NCBI GenBank assembly: GCA_964576275.1 | Contig: CAZNUN010000004.1 | Location: forward strand, 28,736-92,735 | Source: an uncultured bacterium | GTDB lineage: Bacteria; Fidelibacterota; UBA2242 | Reading direction: 5' to 3' | DNA length: 64,000 nucleotides | Part shown: piece by piece, positions 4,802 to 21,705 of the stretch | Numbering within the stretch: the first letter of the stretch is position 1 | How the letters are laid out: each line of letters starts with the position of its first letter | Notes under the pieces: generated by a model | Seen by the model: the letters and a program-made list of their open reading frames with translations, nothing else | Told to the model about the DNA's origin: nothing | Database searches by the model: none | Position numbers and translations under genes: made by a program

Positions 4802-7615
4802 TTATAACCGGATAGTTTGTTGCTCACCCGTGTATTTAATGACCTTGTCGGGCTGCGGGGTGCTTTCTATTCCGGTGCCATGGCCAGGTCTGACTAATAC
4901 CACCTGAAATTGTCGTTCGGTCAGCATGCCGGGAAAAGAACCATTGCGCGGCCCGATCGTCAATTGCTTTTTAGCGTCGTTCCACTGGAAGGTAATCGTG
5001 GCGTAAATCCCTTTCTCGTAATTGTAATTATCGTTCTCGTCCTCGTAGAGCGTGAAACTGCCATCCGCGCCGGGATAAATCCGCAGTTCGAGCGGATCGG
5101 CCGGTTTTTCAGTGGCATATTGTACGAACGGTCCAAGCGGCACGACCGAACCGGCTTTAATCAACAGCGGAATTTTATCGATCGGAGCGTCAGCCGTTAT
5201 GCTTTGACCGCCGGTATAGGTTGCCCCGGTCCAGAAATCGATCCAGGCCGTTTCGGCGGGCAGGTATACCGACCGGGTTTGCGGGCGCGGTTCCATAGTC
5301 TTTTCGCGTGCGAACATTTCCGGCGTTTTCCAGTTCAGGATCATCTTAGCGGCGCCGGTGGAACGATTCTGCATTTCTAGCCGAAAATCGTATTCCCGTC
5401 CGGCTTCCAGTCTGACCGTATCCGTGTACTGTTCGACGCTGGTATAGACGATCGGAAGTTCCTTGCCGTCGATGAAAAGACGTTTGGCGTCGTAACTAAT
5501 CAGGTGAAACTGATACGAACCACTTTCCGGCGGAGACAGTTTGCTCTCCCAGCACACCGCGAATGCGGAATCGGTCATGTAATCCGGCCGGCCGGTGTAC
5601 CACAGGTGATTGATGTCGGGCTCGATTTGCTTGCGGGACAGGTCGGCGAAATCCGGATTGTGGTAATATTTGACCTTCAGGCCCGGCTTGCCGTCGGCAG
5701 TTTGGAAATATTGCGGTGAGATCAGAACGCTTTTCTCCGGCGGGCGGTGCAACATATATTCGGTGACGGGACAGACCATAACTGATGGGCCGAACATATA
5801 TTGATCGGCGATTGCATAAGTCTTTTGGTCTTGCGGGAAATCCATCGGCAGGCCGCGCATCATGGTATAACCTTCATCGGTTACCCGCCAGGCCAGCGAA
5901 TATATGTAGGGCAGCAGCCGGTAGCGCAGATTATCGAATTTGATCAGGTTTTCGGAAAACTCGCCGAATCGCCAGATTTCACGGGGCGTCTCACTGCCGT
6001 GCGCCCGGAAAATCGGGCAGAATGTCCCGAACTGGAACATGCGGGTATAGAGTTCCTGGTAAGCCGGATCCTGACCGCCGTGAATGAACACTCCGCCGTA
6101 AGCTCCGATCACGAATCCACCGATGTCGAAAGTCCAGTAAGGCACGCCCGCCATACAGAAATTCAGCCCGGCGCTGATCTGGTCGCGGTAAATCTCCCAG
6201 CTGGCGCCGATGTCGCCCGACCAGGTCGTCGCAGCGGCCCGCTGCTGTCCGGCATACACCGAACGCGTCAGCATGTAAACGCGCTTTTGTTCGGATTCCC
6301 GGCGCTGATTCTGGTAGAGTTTATCCATCATCACCAGCGAATAGGCATTCAGGTAACGCGCCCAGCTGCCGAGGTAATTATTCTCGACCTTTTTCATTTC
6401 GTATTCTTCGGCCGCTTTGGTGGTGGCATTGATGATGTCCGGTTCGGTGGAATCGATCCAGAGCGCATCAATCCCGGCGGAAATCAGCCCTGTTTTAACA
6501 TAAGACCAGTAGAGATCGTTGGCGTCCGGATTGAAGGCGTCGAAATATTTGAATGAAGCCCAGCCGACGGTATTAAACAGGTAACCGCGGGCGGCCATAT
6601 CTTTATGGATCGGCGTATTGGGTCCCAGCCCCGGCCAGATCGAGATCATGATGTGAAAGTTTTGGTCGTGGATGCGCTTAATCATGTCCTTCGGTTCGGG
6701 ATACCTTTTCGGGTCGAAAGACATCGCACTCCAATTGGCATTGTCGCCCCAGTAATTCCAGTCCTGGATAATATTGTCAACCGGAATGCGCCGCTGGCGA
6801 TACTCCTTGACAACGTCCAGCAATTCATCGCGGGTATGATAATGCTCCTTGCTCTGCCAGTAACCATAAGCCCACTTGCCGTACATGGGCGCTGACCCGG
6901 TCAGCTGGCGGTAGCCGCCAATCACCGCGTCCATATTCGCGCCGCCGATCAGGTAATAATCGAGATTGTCGCCGACTTCCGACCAGAGCGACATAGTTGT
7001 GGCGGTATCCTGGAAAACAGTCTTGGAATAATTATCCCACAGGATGCCCCAGCCGTTGGTCGAGATCAGGAAGGGCGTCACGGCGTCGGTATTGGTCTGG
7101 ACGAGCGTTACGCTCCGCCCGCGGTAATTCATATAACCGTTCTGATGCTGCCCGAGGCCGAAAAGTCCCTCGTCCGGCGTCAGTTTGAAATCTTGCTGCA
7201 CGCTGAAAGCCTTTTCGCCGCCGATGGTGAGCGGGTCGATGACGGTATTTTTCGTTTCTTTAAGGATTATTTGGCCATCGGCAGTGAAATATTCGATATG
7301 CCCGTCGCGCTTCGAGAGTTTGAGGGTCATCTGCCCGGTTTTCAGCACCACGGTGTTGCGATTATCCTTAATGTCAATCGGTATTTGCGGCAGGCTGTCC
7401 CGGATAACCATCAGGCTTACTTTTTCCGGAGATGATTCCGGCCGCCATTTCACGACCCGGGCGATGTTGCCGGCATGAAATTGAACCCGGACATTCAGGT
7501 TTTTGGTTTCTAATTGCAATCCGTTTTGTATTGACGTTGTTTTACCCGGCTGGCCGCATTGCGAGCATGCCAGCAGGGCTGTCGTAATAAGATAAATCCC
7601 GCGAGTTTTCATCAT
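4802..7615 (-). CDS. glycoside hydrolase family 31 (alpha-xylosidase/alpha-glucosidase-like) with a PA14-like insertion; lipoprotein
   Basis: GH31 catalytic block DAFNPDA…W…GIDALWIDSTEPD (cf. DFTNP…WIDMNEP). A KWAYGYWQSKEHYHTRDEL region. PA14-like segment (VKYYHNPDFADLSRKQIEPDINHLWYTG). Lipobox LLAC. 937 aa. Confidence 0.8.
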   Translation of the reverse strand: MMKTRGIYLITTALLACSQCGQPGKTTSIQNGLQLETKNLNVRVQFHAGNIARVVKWRPESSPEKVSLMVIRDSLPQIPIDIKDNRNTVVLKTGQMTLKLSKRDGHIEYFTADGQIILKETKNTVIDPLTIGGEKAFSVQQDFKLTPDEGLFGLGQHQNGYMNYRGRSVTLVQTNTDAVTPFLISTNGWGILWDNYSKTVFQDTATTMSLWSEVGDNLDYYLIGGANMDAVIGGYRQLTGSAPMYGKWAYGYWQSKEHYHTRDELLDVVKEYRQRRIPVDNIIQDWNYWGDNANWSAMSFDPKRYPEPKDMIKRIHDQNFHIMISIWPGLGPNTPIHKDMAARGYLFNTVGWASFKYFDAFNPDANDLYWSYVKTGLISAGIDALWIDSTEPDIINATTKAAEEYEMKKVENNYLGSWARYLNAYSLVMMDKLYQNQRRESEQKRVYMLTRSVYAGQQRAAATTWSGDIGASWEIYRDQISAGLNFCMAGVPYWTFDIGGFVIGAYGGVFIHGGQDPAYQELYTRMFQFGTFCPIFRAHGSETPREIWRFGEFSENLIKFDNLRYRLLPYIYSLAWRVTDEGYTMMRGLPMDFPQDQKTYAIADQYMFGPSVMVCPVTEYMLHRPPEKSVLISPQYFQTADGKPGLKVKYYHNPDFADLSRKQIEPDINHLWYTGRPDYMTDSAFAVCWESKLSPPESGSYQFHLISYDAKRLFIDGKELPIVYTSVEQYTDTVRLEAGREYDFRLEMQNRSTGAAKMILNWKTPEMFAREKTMEPRPQTRSVYLPAETAWIDFWTGATYTGGQSITADAPIDKIPLLIKAGSVVPLGPFVQYATEKPADPLELRIYPGADGSFTLYEDENDNYNYEKGIYATITFQWNDAKKQLTIGPRNGSFPGMLTERQFQVVLVRPGHGTGIESTPQPDKVIKYTGEQQTIRL

Positions 7616-17416: not shown

Positions 17417-19291
17417 ATGCGCGCGCTAATTATCGGCACCGCCGGACACATCGATCACGGAAAATCGGCGCTGGTGAAAGCCCTTACCGGAACCGATCCG
17501 GACCGCCTGGCCGAAGAGCAGGAGCGCGGCATGACAATCGATATCGGTTTTGCCTTCCTGAATGACAAGATCGCTTTTATCGATGTCCCCGGGCACGAAC
17601 GTTTTATTAAAAATATGGTGACCGGCGCGGCGACGGTGGAGGTTGCCATGCTGGTGATAGCCGCGGATGACGGCGTCATGCCACAGACCCGCGAACATCT
17701 CGAGATTCTCAAATTACTGGGAATTCGCAACGGTTTAATCGTCATCAATAAAATCGACCTGGTGAAAGCCGATTGGCTGGAGATGATTACCGAAGACGTC
17801 CGGCAATTGGTCAAGGGCTCGTTCCTGGAAAATGCGCCGGTTTTCAAGGTCTCGGCCGTCACTGGAAGCGGTCTTTCCGAACTGCGTCGCTATTTAACCG
17901 AATTGCCGGCCGGAATTCCTGAAGTGCAATCTTCCGGGCTATTTCGTTTGCCGGTCGATCGCGTTTTTTCAGCCAAAGGTTTCGGCACGGTTGTAACCGG
18001 GACAGTGCTTTCCGGTGCGGTCAAAGTCGGGGATGAAGTCGAGATTATGCCGACCGGTCAGCGGGTGAAAATCCGCGGTCTGCAATCGCATAATAACACC
18101 GTTGGTTCGATTGCCAGAGGGCAGCGGGCGGCGCTCAATCTGGCCGGCGTCACGCGCTCGGAAATCGAACGCGGAATGCTGATCGTTACGCCGGGCGCTT
18201 TTCGCAAAACAAACCTGCTGACCGTTTATCTGGAATCTTTGCCGCAGTCCCCGCCGATCAAATATAATGATCAGTTGCGCTTGCACCTCGGCACCGGCGA
18301 ATATATCGTACGGATTCGTTTGATCGGGCGCGATCAATTGTTGCCGGGAACGGTTGGAATAGTCCAATTAATTTTCGGGCGACCGGTTTCCGCCGGCTTC
18401 CGGGATCGATTTATTCTGCGTTCATATTCGCCCCTTGAAACAATCGGCGGCGGCATAGTACTGGAAAACTGCCCGGAGCCGCTGCGGAAAAAAGACCTGG
18501 CGGTGGCGGCCGGACTTGAAAAGTTGGTCGCGGCCGGTTATGATGAATGGCTGAAGTGGCTGGTTCTCCGTCGCGGTAAGCAATTGACTACGACCGCAGA
18601 ATTATCGCAAGCCCTGACCGTCTCGCCGGATGAGATCGCCGCGCTGCTGACGCGATTGATTGACGGCAACGTGCTGCGCGAGATTAACGGAAAACTGATC
18701 GCCGCGGAGCAATTCAGCGCAAACACCGAAAAGATTATTACAACCCTGACGGACTTTCACCGCAAAAATCCGCTTCTGAACGGTCTGGAGAAAGCCACTT
18801 TATACGGCCAATTGCATCTGGAAGAAATGCTCGGCGACGGGCTGATTGATGAATTAAATAAGGCCGGAAAGGTTAATTTGCTTGGCGATAAATTGGCGCT
18901 GGCCGGCTTTACGCCGCAGTTGAATAACGGGCAAACCTCGCGGCAGGAACGAATTCTCGCGGAGATCGTCGGCTCCGGTCTGACTCCGCCAACGTTGACT
19001 GAACTGGCCGAAAAATTCCAGACCGACCCGGCGGAACTGCGCCAATTGATTAACCTCCTGATCGAACAACAAAAAGTGGTGCTGATCGACCGGATTTTTC
19101 CGTTCAGCACTACAACGCTTGACCAGGCTGGGGAACGGCTTACCCAATTTTTACAAAGGAAAAGCGCGGCGACGGTCAGCGAATTGAAAGATGCGCTCGG
19201 CGTTTCGCGCAAATATGCCATACCAATTTTGAATTATTTCGACCAGAAAGGAGTGACGGTGCGAAATGGTGATCTGCGCAGGCTGGGATAA
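17417..19291 (+). CDS. selB: selenocysteine-specific translation elongation factor SelB
   Basis: GTPase G1 motif (GTAGHIDHGKSALV). EF-Tu-like domains plus the C-terminal winged-helix extension typical of SelB. The last ~107 bp (19185-19291) are duplicated in divergent form at 21599-21705. Confidence 0.9.
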   Translation: MRALIIGTAGHIDHGKSALVKALTGTDPDRLAEEQERGMTIDIGFAFLNDKIAFIDVPGHERFIKNMVTGAATVEVAMLVIAADDGVMPQTREHLEILKLLGIRNGLIVINKIDLVKADWLEMITEDVRQLVKGSFLENAPVFKVSAVTGSGLSELRRYLTELPAGIPEVQSSGLFRLPVDRVFSAKGFGTVVTGTVLSGAVKVGDEVEIMPTGQRVKIRGLQSHNNTVGSIARGQRAALNLAGVTRSEIERGMLIVTPGAFRKTNLLTVYLESLPQSPPIKYNDQLRLHLGTGEYIVRIRLIGRDQLLPGTVGIVQLIFGRPVSAGFRDRFILRSYSPLETIGGGIVLENCPEPLRKKDLAVAAGLEKLVAAGYDEWLKWLVLRRGKQLTTTAELSQALTVSPDEIAALLTRLIDGNVLREINGKLIAAEQFSANTEKIITTLTDFHRKNPLLNGLEKATLYGQLHLEEMLGDGLIDELNKAGKVNLLGDKLALAGFTPQLNNGQTSRQERILAEIVGSGLTPPTLTELAEKFQTDPAELRQLINLLIEQQKVVLIDRIFPFSTTTLDQAGERLTQFLQRKSAATVSELKDALGVSRKYAIPILNYFDQKGVTVRNGDLRRLG

Positions 19292-19664
19292 GACATCGGG
19301 GGAAAAGCATTAATTGTAAAAATCAAATAGAAATGATTAAAATACTCACTAATAGTACCCGCTTTTATTAGAATTGAAGTTAAATGTAAGAAAACAGTTA
19401 TTTCCTTTAAACCAATAATGAAAGAAGGAATTTCAGTGATGTTTAACGTTGATTCGATTTTATCTGCTCCATTCTGGCCTGAGCTTGTTTGAGTAATAGC
19501 TTCAGATACGATTGATGAAGATACCATCAGAGTTCAAGCAGAGGGAATTGCCACTGGTAGATATTACAAACGGCTGATTGATTATAAGGATTTAGATTAA
19601 ATCAGCATTGAAGAAGAAACGCGCTTGAAATTCAACGAAGACGCTGAGAAATTCTTCTTATTCA

Positions 19665-20036
19665 TTGAATCACATCAAATCCGAAATGCTTTCATCGAAA
19701 GAGATTGAATTGATCGGCATGAATGTCGCGATGGAATATGAAACCGAGCGCGGGCGCAAACCAGAAGATGTATCGCTGAAAAACCTTGGTTATGATATAC
19801 ATTCTATTAGTGATACTGAAAGCGAACATCGTTATATCGAAGTAAAAGCGAGTGCCAAGGAAGGCGGAATTCTTCTGACCCAAAATGAATGGTTTATGGC
19901 ACAGAGACTAAAAGATGAGTATTGGCTTTATATAGTCAGCAATGCAATTTCAAATCCGAAACTCTTTCTTATTCAGAATCCTGCCGCTAAATTACAACCT
20001 GCCGAGGTAATTGAAACCGTGAGATACGTTATTTAA
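19665..20036 (+). CDS. DUF3883 domain protein (restriction-endonuclease-like fold), possibly the C-terminal remnant of a longer gene
   Basis: GYDIHSISDTESEHRYIEVKAS…LTQNEW…YWLYIV matches the DUF3883 core (D…EVK). Upstream 19440-19660 holds short broken reading frames, suggesting truncation. Confidence 0.6.
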   Translation: MNHIKSEMLSSKEIELIGMNVAMEYETERGRKPEDVSLKNLGYDIHSISDTESEHRYIEVKASAKEGGILLTQNEWFMAQRLKDEYWLYIVSNAISNPKLFLIQNPAAKLQPAEVIETVRYVI

Positions 20037-20081
20037 AACCGGAATAAAAGTAACATTATCACCACCGATTGAAATAACACA

Positions 20082-21449
20082 ATGAATAACGAAGAATTAA
20101 GATTATTAATCCAACAGGGAGAATCGGAAACGATTGAGTTTAAGGAAAACTTCGGGAATGAAGCTATTGAATCTGCCGGAGCTTTCGCCAATACCCGCGG
20201 TGGACTAATTCTGATCGGAGTTAACAGACATGGTCATATAAATTGTGTTCAGGCGACTCAGGAAACGTTAAAAGATTGGGCTAATCAGGTTGGACAATGT
20301 AGTGAACCCACATTTACGCCATTATTTGAAATTGTTCCGACTGACAACGGTAATGTTGTCGCTATTCACATCAGTGAATATCCGCTCAAACCGGTTTCGA
20401 TTCGCGGCAGATTCTATCGACGGGTCAATGCCAGCAACCATCAGATGATACCAGATGAAATCGCACAGATGCACCTTTATTCAATCGGTTCCAGCTATGA
20501 TGCCATCTCAAGTCCGAACGCAACTCTCGATGATATATCAGAAGATAAAATCAGAGATTATTTGCAGAAGGCTAACGCTACCGGACGCCGGAATTATGAT
20601 ATCAGTCGACCACCTCTTCAAATACTTGAAAAAGTTGAATTGATCAAATCGGGCAAGCCGACTATTGCTGCAGTTCTATTATTTGCAAAAGAACCTCATA
20701 ATAAAATTCACCAGGCTATCGTACATTGCGGGCGATTTAAGGAACTCACTACTATTATCGATGACCGATTGATAGAAGGTACAATTATTGAGCAGATTGA
20801 CGAAGTTATGGCTTTCCTGCGGAAGAACACCAGCGTTCGTTTTGTATTTACCGGAAAACCCGAACGTGAAGAAGTCTGGGATTATCCATTGGAAGCTCTG
20901 CGGGAAGCCGTAACGAATGCCATCTGCCACCGCGACTATGGCAATACCAGCGATATTCAAATTAAAGTTCACGACGATTATCTGACAATTTGGAATCCGG
21001 GCGGACTATTACCGGGGATGTCAATCGAGGAATTGTATGATCCTAATCATTCTTCCAAACCCCGCAATCGGCTAATCGCCCAGGTTTTTAATGACATTAA
21101 ATTGATCGAAAAATACGGTTCCGGCATCCAGCGTATCTTAACCGAATGTGCAAAAGTCGGCATTCCGGCCCCATCGTTTGAAGAGAAGTTCGGTGGCTTT
21201 CTGGTAACCTTCCGAAAGGATATTTACACTGAAGACCATCTTAAAGCCATGGGATTGAACGAACGACAGATAAAGGCCGTAGTATTTACAAAAAAGAATG
21301 GTAAAATAACAAATAAACAATATCAGGAAATAACCGGCATCCAGAAACGACAAGCCACTGTTGACCTTCAGGATATGGAAAATAAAGGAATACTCACAAA
21401 GGTCGGAAAAACCGGTAGAGGAACCTTTTACACCCTAAAGGGGCATTAA
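20082..21449 (+). CDS. COG2865-type ATP-binding protein: Schlafen/AlbA_2 DNA-binding domain, HATPase_c_4-like domain and C-terminal wHTH
   Basis: AlbA_2 hallmark (ESETIEFKENFGNEAIESAGAFANTRGGLILIGV) at the N-terminus. C-terminal HTH (…ITNKQYQEITGIQKRQATVDLQDMENKGILTKVG). Confidence 0.7.
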   Translation: MNNEELRLLIQQGESETIEFKENFGNEAIESAGAFANTRGGLILIGVNRHGHINCVQATQETLKDWANQVGQCSEPTFTPLFEIVPTDNGNVVAIHISEYPLKPVSIRGRFYRRVNASNHQMIPDEIAQMHLYSIGSSYDAISSPNATLDDISEDKIRDYLQKANATGRRNYDISRPPLQILEKVELIKSGKPTIAAVLLFAKEPHNKIHQAIVHCGRFKELTTIIDDRLIEGTIIEQIDEVMAFLRKNTSVRFVFTGKPEREEVWDYPLEALREAVTNAICHRDYGNTSDIQIKVHDDYLTIWNPGGLLPGMSIEELYDPNHSSKPRNRLIAQVFNDIKLIEKYGSGIQRILTECAKVGIPAPSFEEKFGGFLVTFRKDIYTEDHLKAMGLNERQIKAVVFTKKNGKITNKQYQEITGIQKRQATVDLQDMENKGILTKVGKTGRGTFYTLKGH

Positions 21450-21488
21450 TGGGGCAAAAGGGGCATTAAAGGGGCGTTAATGGGGCAC
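21440..21488. repeat. tandem ~11-bp repeat (ggggcattaat-like, ~5 units) overlapping the 3' end of the COG2865 gene
   Basis: ggggcattaatggggcaaaaggggcattaaaggggcgttaatggggcacag. Confidence 0.7.
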
Positions 21489-21598
21489 AGACCTTCTGAA
21501 CAGATTGGACATCATTGTCCGAAAAACCCGAAATGCTTCTAATAAATGATACCAAATACACCAGTAAAACAAGACAATAAAATGGATATCACTCCTTT

Positions 21599-21705
21599 TG
21601 AAAGATGTGCTCGGCGTTTCGCGCAAATACGCCGTGCCGCTCCTGAATTATTTCGACCGGAAAGGCGTAACGGTGCGCAGCGGCGACCTGCGAAAATTAG
21701 GATAA
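21599..21705 (+). pseudogene. displaced native 3'-end fragment of selB (attR-like remnant)
   Basis: 107 bp aligns to selB 19185-19291 at ~85% identity, differing mostly at synonymous third positions. It encodes …[34 protein letters not shown] versus …[34 protein letters not shown]. It has high GC like the host. Confidence 0.85.

Follow-up and report, generated by a model that had tools for sequence, protein, structure and literature searches.

Does a small islet behind a bacterial selB gene carry an unnamed two-gene defense module, or a piece of something already known? The islet in question lies in a 64,000-nt stretch of contig CAZNUN010000004.1 from an uncultured bacterium (hereafter the window). 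The original prediction, made from the letters alone, held that its only intact genes, an open reading frame (ORF) for a DUF3883 domain at 19665-20036 and a gene for a 455-aa COG2865 protein at 20082-21449, form such a module. Both ORFs are found at these positions, and profile searches for PF13020, PF04326, and PF13749 all support the domains that had been assigned to them. The pairing itself, however, is a by-product of a Schlafen-type gene embedded in a named system, the three-gene anti-phage system Hma, and that arrangement has already been published. The locus is a decayed example of it and not a new system. Specifically, it is highly probable that the islet is what decay has left of an Hma defense locus in which the Schlafen gene was embedded between hmaA and hmaB.

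Hma was named as a candidate helicase–methylase–ATPase system distributed over 26 phyla (Payne et al. 2021) and has since been renamed the type-1 DUF499-centred BREX-related (BR) system (NAR 2026, PMC12839542). HmaA joins an SNF2 helicase to a NOV_C nuclease, HmaB is a DUF1156 N6-adenine methylase, and HmaC is a DUF499 AAA+ ATPase (Payne 2021; Liu 2024). HmaA alone protects Escherichia coli against T4; this defense is lost when helicase motif VI is mutated, and it also depends on the catalytic residues of the NOV_C domain, a Mn2+-dependent nickase (Liu et al. 2024). Extra genes are common in these loci: insertions between hma genes occur in about two thirds of them (Liu et al. 2024), and among 1,485 Hma systems, 62.7% contained embedded genes (Payne et al. 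2024 preprint). In the supplementary embedded-gene tables of the latter study, the COG2865 family with AlbA_2, HATPase_c_4, and HTH_24 domains appears as FAM_00002. Likewise, at least 1017 taxa show an association of BREX/BR core loci with a Schlafen protein that has a minimal His-kinase and a winged helix-turn-helix (wHTH) (NAR 2026, PMC12839542).

Orthology and synteny both point to descent of the islet from such a locus. Gene order in the relatives was established by phmmer searches of the six-frame ORFs from all 51 fetched loci (designated L below), with HmaA, HmaB, and HmaC as references. The closest homologues of the 455-aa protein, P0001 in L001 (84% identity) and P0003 in L002 (69%), are encoded directly downstream of proteins of 1105 and 1103 aa, respectively, that carry SNF2-rel_dom, Helicase_C, and NOV_C domains and match PADLOC HmaA over its full length (E 8e-213 and 7e-215). 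The gene that follows the COG2865 homologue in both loci encodes HmaB (E ~1e-144; 6e-144 in L001), here a DUF1156 methylase that contains a GIY-YIG insert, and L002 continues to the DUF499 ATPase HmaC. The order hmaA–COG2865–hmaB(–hmaC) is kept in more than 10 loci, about a dozen of them independent relatives (L001, L002, L014, L027-L030, L032, L036-L039, and L047), including a Rikenellaceae metagenome-assembled genome (MAG; L014), and partial versions occur in L007, L016, and L017, the last from ANME-1. The window DNA is 82-85% identical to L001 and L027 from the hmaA start at 19439 through the intergenic region that follows the COG2865 gene. This homology to intact loci ends at 21593, 4 nt before the second of two selB repeat copies that bracket the islet and 110 nt short of the hmaB start.

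Read against these relatives, the sequence of the DUF3883 ORF identifies it as the leftover 3′ stump of an hmaA pseudogene, not as an intact gene and not as a partner gene. The ORF encodes 123 aa from a TTG codon, or 116 aa if the ATG at 19686 is taken as the start, as gene callers do, and holds a complete NOV_C/DUF3883 domain (PF13020, E 3.7e-25, profile positions 1-91 of 91) with the D...EVK core that had been noticed in it (D44, E59-V-K61). Its product matches the C terminus of PADLOC HmaA (positions 1042-1146 of 1176), and the frame upstream of 19665 matches N-terminal parts, those of DrmD (E 8.6e-5) and of HmaA (positions 20-91). The broken frames at 19440-19660, which had raised the suspicion that the first gene is truncated, correspond to hmaA codons 1-85 and carry in-frame stops at 19490-19492 (TGA) and 19598-19600 (TAA), so that the suspicion was justified. 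Codons 86-976, about 2.67 kb that encode the whole SNF2 motor, are deleted. The deletion junction lies within the 14-nt overlap of the two hmaA fragments (19680-19693), and the frame is shifted by +1. Because a GAAATG..TC motif at the junction matches both breakpoints in L001, sequence comparison firmly indicates that the motor was lost by microhomology-mediated deletion. On the branch leading to the window, substitutions in the two hmaA fragments, although small in number, are mostly synonymous (10 synonymous and 4 non-synonymous in one, 6 and 1 in the other); pseudogenization is therefore recent relative to the divergence from L001, and the open frame of the 3′ fragment reflects this recent decay. 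The internal hmaA deletion came first, followed by the two nonsense mutations in the 5′ piece that was kept. Thus, of the two genes held to be intact, the 455-aa COG2865 gene is, but the DUF3883 ORF is a 3′ fragment of a gene of about 1105 codons.

These observations bear directly on whether a NOV_C mini-protein, acting as a PD-(D/E)xK nickase, could form a working two-gene module with the COG2865 protein, be it ancestral or born of the deletion. Such a module would be in keeping with a 3′ fragment that remains open with its D44 and E59-V-K61 residues intact, that runs through 118 codons without a stop, against two stops in the 85 codons of the 5′ fragment, and that is annotated by gene callers as a 116-aa gene in every assembly. 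The fragment also corresponds closely to a 142-aa C-terminal piece of HmaA that nicks supercoiled plasmid in vitro (Liu et al. 2024). However, the ORF was created by an out-of-frame internal deletion in a 1105-codon gene, and recent decay, with mostly synonymous substitutions in both fragments, accounts for its open frame. In every intact relative, NOV_C is the C terminus of a full-length HmaA helicase (~1100 aa) and never a separate gene, while the other short NOV_C neighbors of COG2865 genes are a decayed locus (L019) and an hmaA gene cut by the start of a 1.9-kb contig (L016). Moreover, since mutation of motif VI abolishes HmaA defense, the nuclease alone would not be expected to defend. 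We therefore give the module very little chance. COG2865 homologues do co-occur with DUF3883, as the original prediction supposed, but DUF3883 is always the C-terminal domain of HmaA in a named system, and an unnamed two-gene module is therefore unsupported.

The Hma system proper is dead in the window, because HmaA cannot defend unless helicase motif VI and the NOV_C nickase are both functional (Liu 2024). In place of an HmaA with SNF2 core and NOV_C, only aa 1-85, with two stops, and aa 977-1094 are left. Neither tblastn with HmaB of L002 nor tblastn with HmaC of L002, L029, and L039 gave a match anywhere in the window. Part of the intergenic region that lies upstream of hmaB in intact loci survives and contains a small hairpin, GGACATCATTGTCC, at 21507-21520, followed by GAAAAACCCGAAAT. 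The hairpin is conserved in L001 (~4985-5030) and might serve hmaB as an operator or promoter element.

Decay of Hma loci with an embedded COG2865 gene is seen repeatedly among the relatives, in differing ways. L019 (8595-10830) retains HmaA aa 1004-1094, a frameshifted COG2865 gene, and HmaB aa 3-39; L026 (7822-9853) retains HmaA aa 6-211 and aa 696-1032, the helicase having suffered an internal deletion; in L007 (2957-3055) hmaB is reduced to 35 codons beside an intact COG2865 gene; and in L047 (1888-2307) COG2865 itself is cut to its last 140 codons. A layered defense island is found in L002 (1-16199), where AbiEi/AbiEii and a Fic/RhuM gene lie upstream of an Hma locus with three insertions: the COG2865 gene, a PDDEXK_4 gene with a 202-aa ORF, and an AAA_15/21 ATPase gene with a 204-aa ORF. 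The AAA_15/21 ATPase is PADLOC HEC-01A (E 9e-48).

The gene that outlived the system encodes a protein of the predicted three-part architecture. An N-terminal SLFN_AlbA_2 domain (PF04326, residues 14-122, E 9.8e-17) is followed by an ATPase-like HATPase_c_4 domain (PF13749, residues 290-377, E 4.8e-24) and by a C-terminal wHTH (about residues 390-455), for which the two lines of support are weak Pfam matches and MarR-type fold matches of an AlphaFold2 model. The protein aligns end to end (100% coverage) with 27 bacterial and archaeal homologues of 449-499 aa at 51-84% identity. Seventy-six columns of this alignment are invariant, including E14, E19, K21, N279, H283, R284, G307-G308, and G346-S347-G348, and the Ex4(E/D)xK motif, here E14-SETI-E19-F-K21, is the same in 28 of 28 aligned sequences. 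The Schlafen domain gives Protein Data Bank profile matches to 5yd0, 7lrc, 9nyy, and 7zel, and the HATPase_c_4 module with the wHTH is supported by a profile match to 3lmm (E 1.4e-16). In Foldseek searches, the AlphaFold2 model (pLDDT 83.6) matches DIP2311 (3lmm) over its full length, and its N-terminal domain resembles SLFN13, SLFN12, SLFN11, SLFN5, and the SAMD9 tRNase (5yd0: E 4e-4, probability 1.0). Its tail matches MarR-type wHTH proteins, and histidine-kinase catalytic cores are matched weakly. NCBIfam gave no match for either of the two proteins of the islet. The PADLOC matches of the COG2865 protein, to pAgo-associated models and to SoFic, are partial and cover shared domains only, and membership in pAgo systems was rejected.

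Two further features of the family deserve mention. Five tandem units of a GGGGCRTTAA-type repeat (21436..21487, + strand) extend over the Schlafen stop codon. Similar units are present only in the closest clade (L001, 4925-4945; L027, 11447-11456; L030, 2398-2438 and 2659-2668; L047, 2815-2824). In relatives, the Schlafen ORF reads on through the repeat stretch into variable K/G-rich C-terminal tails; the repeat may drive this variation in tail length. In a Desulfobacteraceae MAG (L015, 9980-12536), two COG2865 paralogues stand in tandem, the first of which lacks the Ex4ExK glutamates (K..NLK).

The Schlafen gene belongs to a very large and highly conserved family whose members divide about evenly between Hma loci and solitary positions. 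Among homologues with at least 55% identity and usable flanks, about half sit in Hma loci, a small-sample estimate drawn from contig scans that gave 14 genome and 25 metagenome loci; solo homologues occur among housekeeping or toxin–antitoxin genes (L008, L009, L011, L031, L033, and L040). A recent catalogue of 5,930 prokaryotic Schlafens (pSlfns), in which Ex4(E/D)xK is conserved, assigns 19.2% to the HisKinase-HTH architecture (Taboada et al. 2025 preprint). The same study showed both defense and phage-triggered tRNA cleavage for DUF262-Slfn and Ig-like-Slfn fusions. By analogy with findings on other pSlfn architectures and on mammalian SLFN11/13, we tentatively propose as its likeliest role, at somewhat short of an even chance, that the 455-aa protein may be an autonomous sensor-effector in which an Ex4ExK RNase is gated on infection by the wHTH together with the ATP-binding-like module. 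In this scheme, the HisKinase-like ATP-binding module and the wHTH would sense or gate, the N-terminal Schlafen nuclease would cleave tRNA or rRNA upon phage infection, and translation arrest would follow in the manner of abortive infection. Transcription of the gene would probably depend on read-through from selA-selB, or start in the AT-rich spacer behind selB, since no terminator-like site lies between.

Several observations weigh against this proposal or against the reading of the islet on which it builds. Residue 49 (codon 20226-20228) is Arg (GVNRHG) and aligns with D248 of rat SLFN13 (5yd0), and the third active-site carboxylate (D248 in SLFN13, D252 in SLFN11) is thus not present in the window protein. 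In SLFN13, the residues that match E14, E19, and K21 are absolutely required and mutation of D248 diminishes RNase activity; the Arg at position 49 therefore weakens the case for an RNase without removing it. The pSlfn catalogue (Taboada et al. 2025 preprint) does not count this third carboxylate among the defining residues. In the GHKL-like domain, Asn or Ser (WNPGG) stands where the adenine-binding Asp of canonical GHKL ATPases would be expected. A promoter and terminator scan returned 3 promoter-like sites, against 7.1 expected from shuffles, and 0 terminators, so that no promoter or terminator can be assigned. The NOV_C fragment, with its open frame and intact catalytic residues, may retain residual activity. 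Finally, the HisKinase-HTH architecture is a pSlfn type without shown defense: of seven pSlfns tested, the DUF262 and Ig-like fusions alone worked (Taboada et al. 2025 preprint).

The substitution at position 49 invites another interpretation, in which the COG2865 protein is a DNA-binding regulator or sensor, for instance the former regulator of the hma operon, with a catalytically impaired Schlafen domain. Most solo copies, and 95 of 120 homologues overall, have Asp at position 49. Of two Hma-embedded clades, the closest reads N/T-R at positions 48-49 (R or K at 49) and the second D-N. At NCBI, relatives go by the names "transcriptional regulator" or "helix-turn-helix domain-containing protein," and the conserved hairpin in the hmaB upstream remnant would suit a regulator as well. 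Yet E14, E19, and K21 are invariant across the family, this clade included, and most of the family has no fixed neighboring operon to regulate. The D-to-R pattern, moreover, comes from two clades and is confounded by phylogeny, and an association of Hma embedding with the absence of D49 is not raised here to a finding. A regulatory role is therefore unlikely. Very unlikely, in our judgment, is that the Hma-embedded subclade with R or K at position 49 has switched to a non-nucleolytic sensor or regulator or to another active-site geometry, or that the NOV_C nickase and the Schlafen protein form a new pair. If either were true, the locus would be a natural experiment in which an embedded gene has outlived its host defense system and works without it.

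The whole islet, the Schlafen gene included, could instead be functionless debris of a recent insertion on its way to deletion. The neighboring hmaA pseudogene and the loss of hmaB and hmaC would fit such a fate, as would the lack of a recognized promoter of its own and the state of the COG2865 gene in L019, L034, L047, and L048, where it is itself frameshifted or truncated. In the window, however, the ORF is full length and every family-invariant residue is kept, and its changes along the window branch number 47 synonymous versus 13 non-synonymous. The islet is, in addition, identical in L003-L006, and every one of the 11-12 contigs with the flanking genes has it, across several metagenomes; when the exact rlmI-like protein was used to look for an empty site, the islet turned up in 11 of 11 contigs and none was empty. 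Mere debris is on this evidence quite unlikely.

How the cassette came to its present position can be read in part from its borders (Table 1). The islet comprises 2,414 bp, which the spacer, the hmaA fragments, the COG2865 gene, and the intergenic remnant fill completely, and has a GC content of 0.40 against 0.54-0.56 in the flanks. A 108-nt direct repeat of the selB 3′ end flanks it on both sides; the two copies are identical at 87 of 108 positions (81%), with a longest identical run of 21 nt (19195-19215 on the side of copy 1). Because the GC content of copy 1 departs from that of the selB body and that of copy 2 agrees with it, copy 1 probably came with the insert and now ends selB, and copy 2 looks like the displaced native end. 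One assembly (L006) has copy 2 called as a 35-aa WHD_3rd_SelB ORF. The duplicated selB end resembles an integrative-island scar. Accordingly, the view of the islet as a gene-end insertion stands as far as the selB 3′-end repeat around low-GC cargo is concerned, but it lacks the expected integrase: neither an integrase nor another mobility gene was found across the 2,414 bp. The spacer between selB and the hmaA start holds a single weak sigma-70-like site (19314-19343). In L003/L052 (JGI 3300029799), selB is called as two genes of 161 and 455 aa, and elsewhere as one 624-aa protein; the split call reflects a mistake in assembly or else a genuine frameshift variant.

A related host, L027 (1-11951), carries the same cassette at another site. 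Its selA, selB, and rlmI-like genes are 68-70% identical to those of the window at the nucleotide level, and its hmaA–COG2865–hmaB cassette (GC 0.40-0.47) is 81-85% identical. In L027 the cassette stands downstream of the rlmI-like gene, and in the window between selB and the rlmI-like gene. On these nucleotide identities, the cassettes are more similar than their hosts and share a neighborhood but not an insertion point. The selB-rlmI gap in L027 is filled by a split Na/sulfate symporter; a 395-aa ORF there, considered as a mobility gene, was identified as this symporter.

Table 1. Features of the islet and its borders in the window
Feature	Position	Strand	Content or state	Basis
selB 3′-end repeat copy 1	19184..19291	+	GC 0.47; encodes last 35 codons and stop of working selB	repeat search, GC, translation
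AT-rich spacer, selB stop to hmaA start codon	19292..19438	+	without homology to relatives	blastn homology to L001/L027 begins exactly at 19439
hmaA pseudogene, 5′ fragment	19439..19693	+	codons 1-85 of SNF2-NOV_C helicase	tblastn vs 1105-aa L001 helicase, 82% identity, E 3e-40
hmaA pseudogene, 3′ fragment	19680..20036	+	codons 977-1094 and stop	tblastn vs L001 helicase: 19680-20033, 86% identity, E 1e-63
pSlfn-HisKinase-like-wHTH gene (COG2865)	20082..21449	+	intact, 455 aa	Pfam, alignment, AlphaFold2 model
Remnant of hmaB upstream intergenic region	21448..21593	+		blastn to L001 4913-5082, 73.5%; L001 hmaB starts at 5192
selB 3′-end repeat copy 2	21598..21705	+	GC 0.54, as in selB body	repeat search, GC

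Collectively, these comparisons correct an annotation: the "DUF3883 gene" that all pipelines annotate in at least 11 assemblies is an hmaA pseudogene fragment and should not be counted as part of a new two-gene system. They also provide a clean, datable case of the decay of a multi-gene defense system, in which a motor domain was deleted by way of microhomology, nonsense mutations followed, and the genes for the methylase and the ATPase were lost. That the Schlafen gene has stayed intact through this decay fits the published idea of embedded genes as autonomous defenses. With pSlfn-HisKinase-HTH proteins making up about one fifth of prokaryotic Schlafens, an orphan that carries the D-to-R substitution is a reasonable, although not a unique, test case.

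Four known arrangements can be set beside the locus. Like gene-3′-end integrative islands, the islet has a repeat of the target 3′ end around low-GC cargo and a GC-matched native copy displaced downstream; unlike them, it has no integrase or any mobility gene. Relative to Hma, or type-1 DUF499 BREX-related systems, its hmaA fragments are 82-86% identical in protein to full-length counterparts and, as in a dozen intact loci, lie directly upstream of COG2865 in the same orientation, but hmaA is in fragments with two stops and hmaB and hmaC are absent, which makes the locus a nonfunctional descendant. No HEC or PDC model in the scanned PADLOC v2 matches the 455-aa protein, in contrast to the embedded genes of the "guilt by embedding" approach (HEC/PDC; Payne 2024), with which it nevertheless shares co-orientation and a place in the hmaA-hmaB gap, the common insertion position. 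The nearest kin of the protein are the HisKinase-HTH pSlfns, described elsewhere as a BREX-BR backup effector, as COG2865, and in the structure of DIP2311 (3lmm). The window protein differs from these in having Arg at the position of SLFN13 D248 and in being an orphan whose host system has decayed; it shares with them the same three modules, the Ex4ExK motif, the fold matches to SLFN N-domains and to 3lmm, and a placement between the genes of a BREX-like system.

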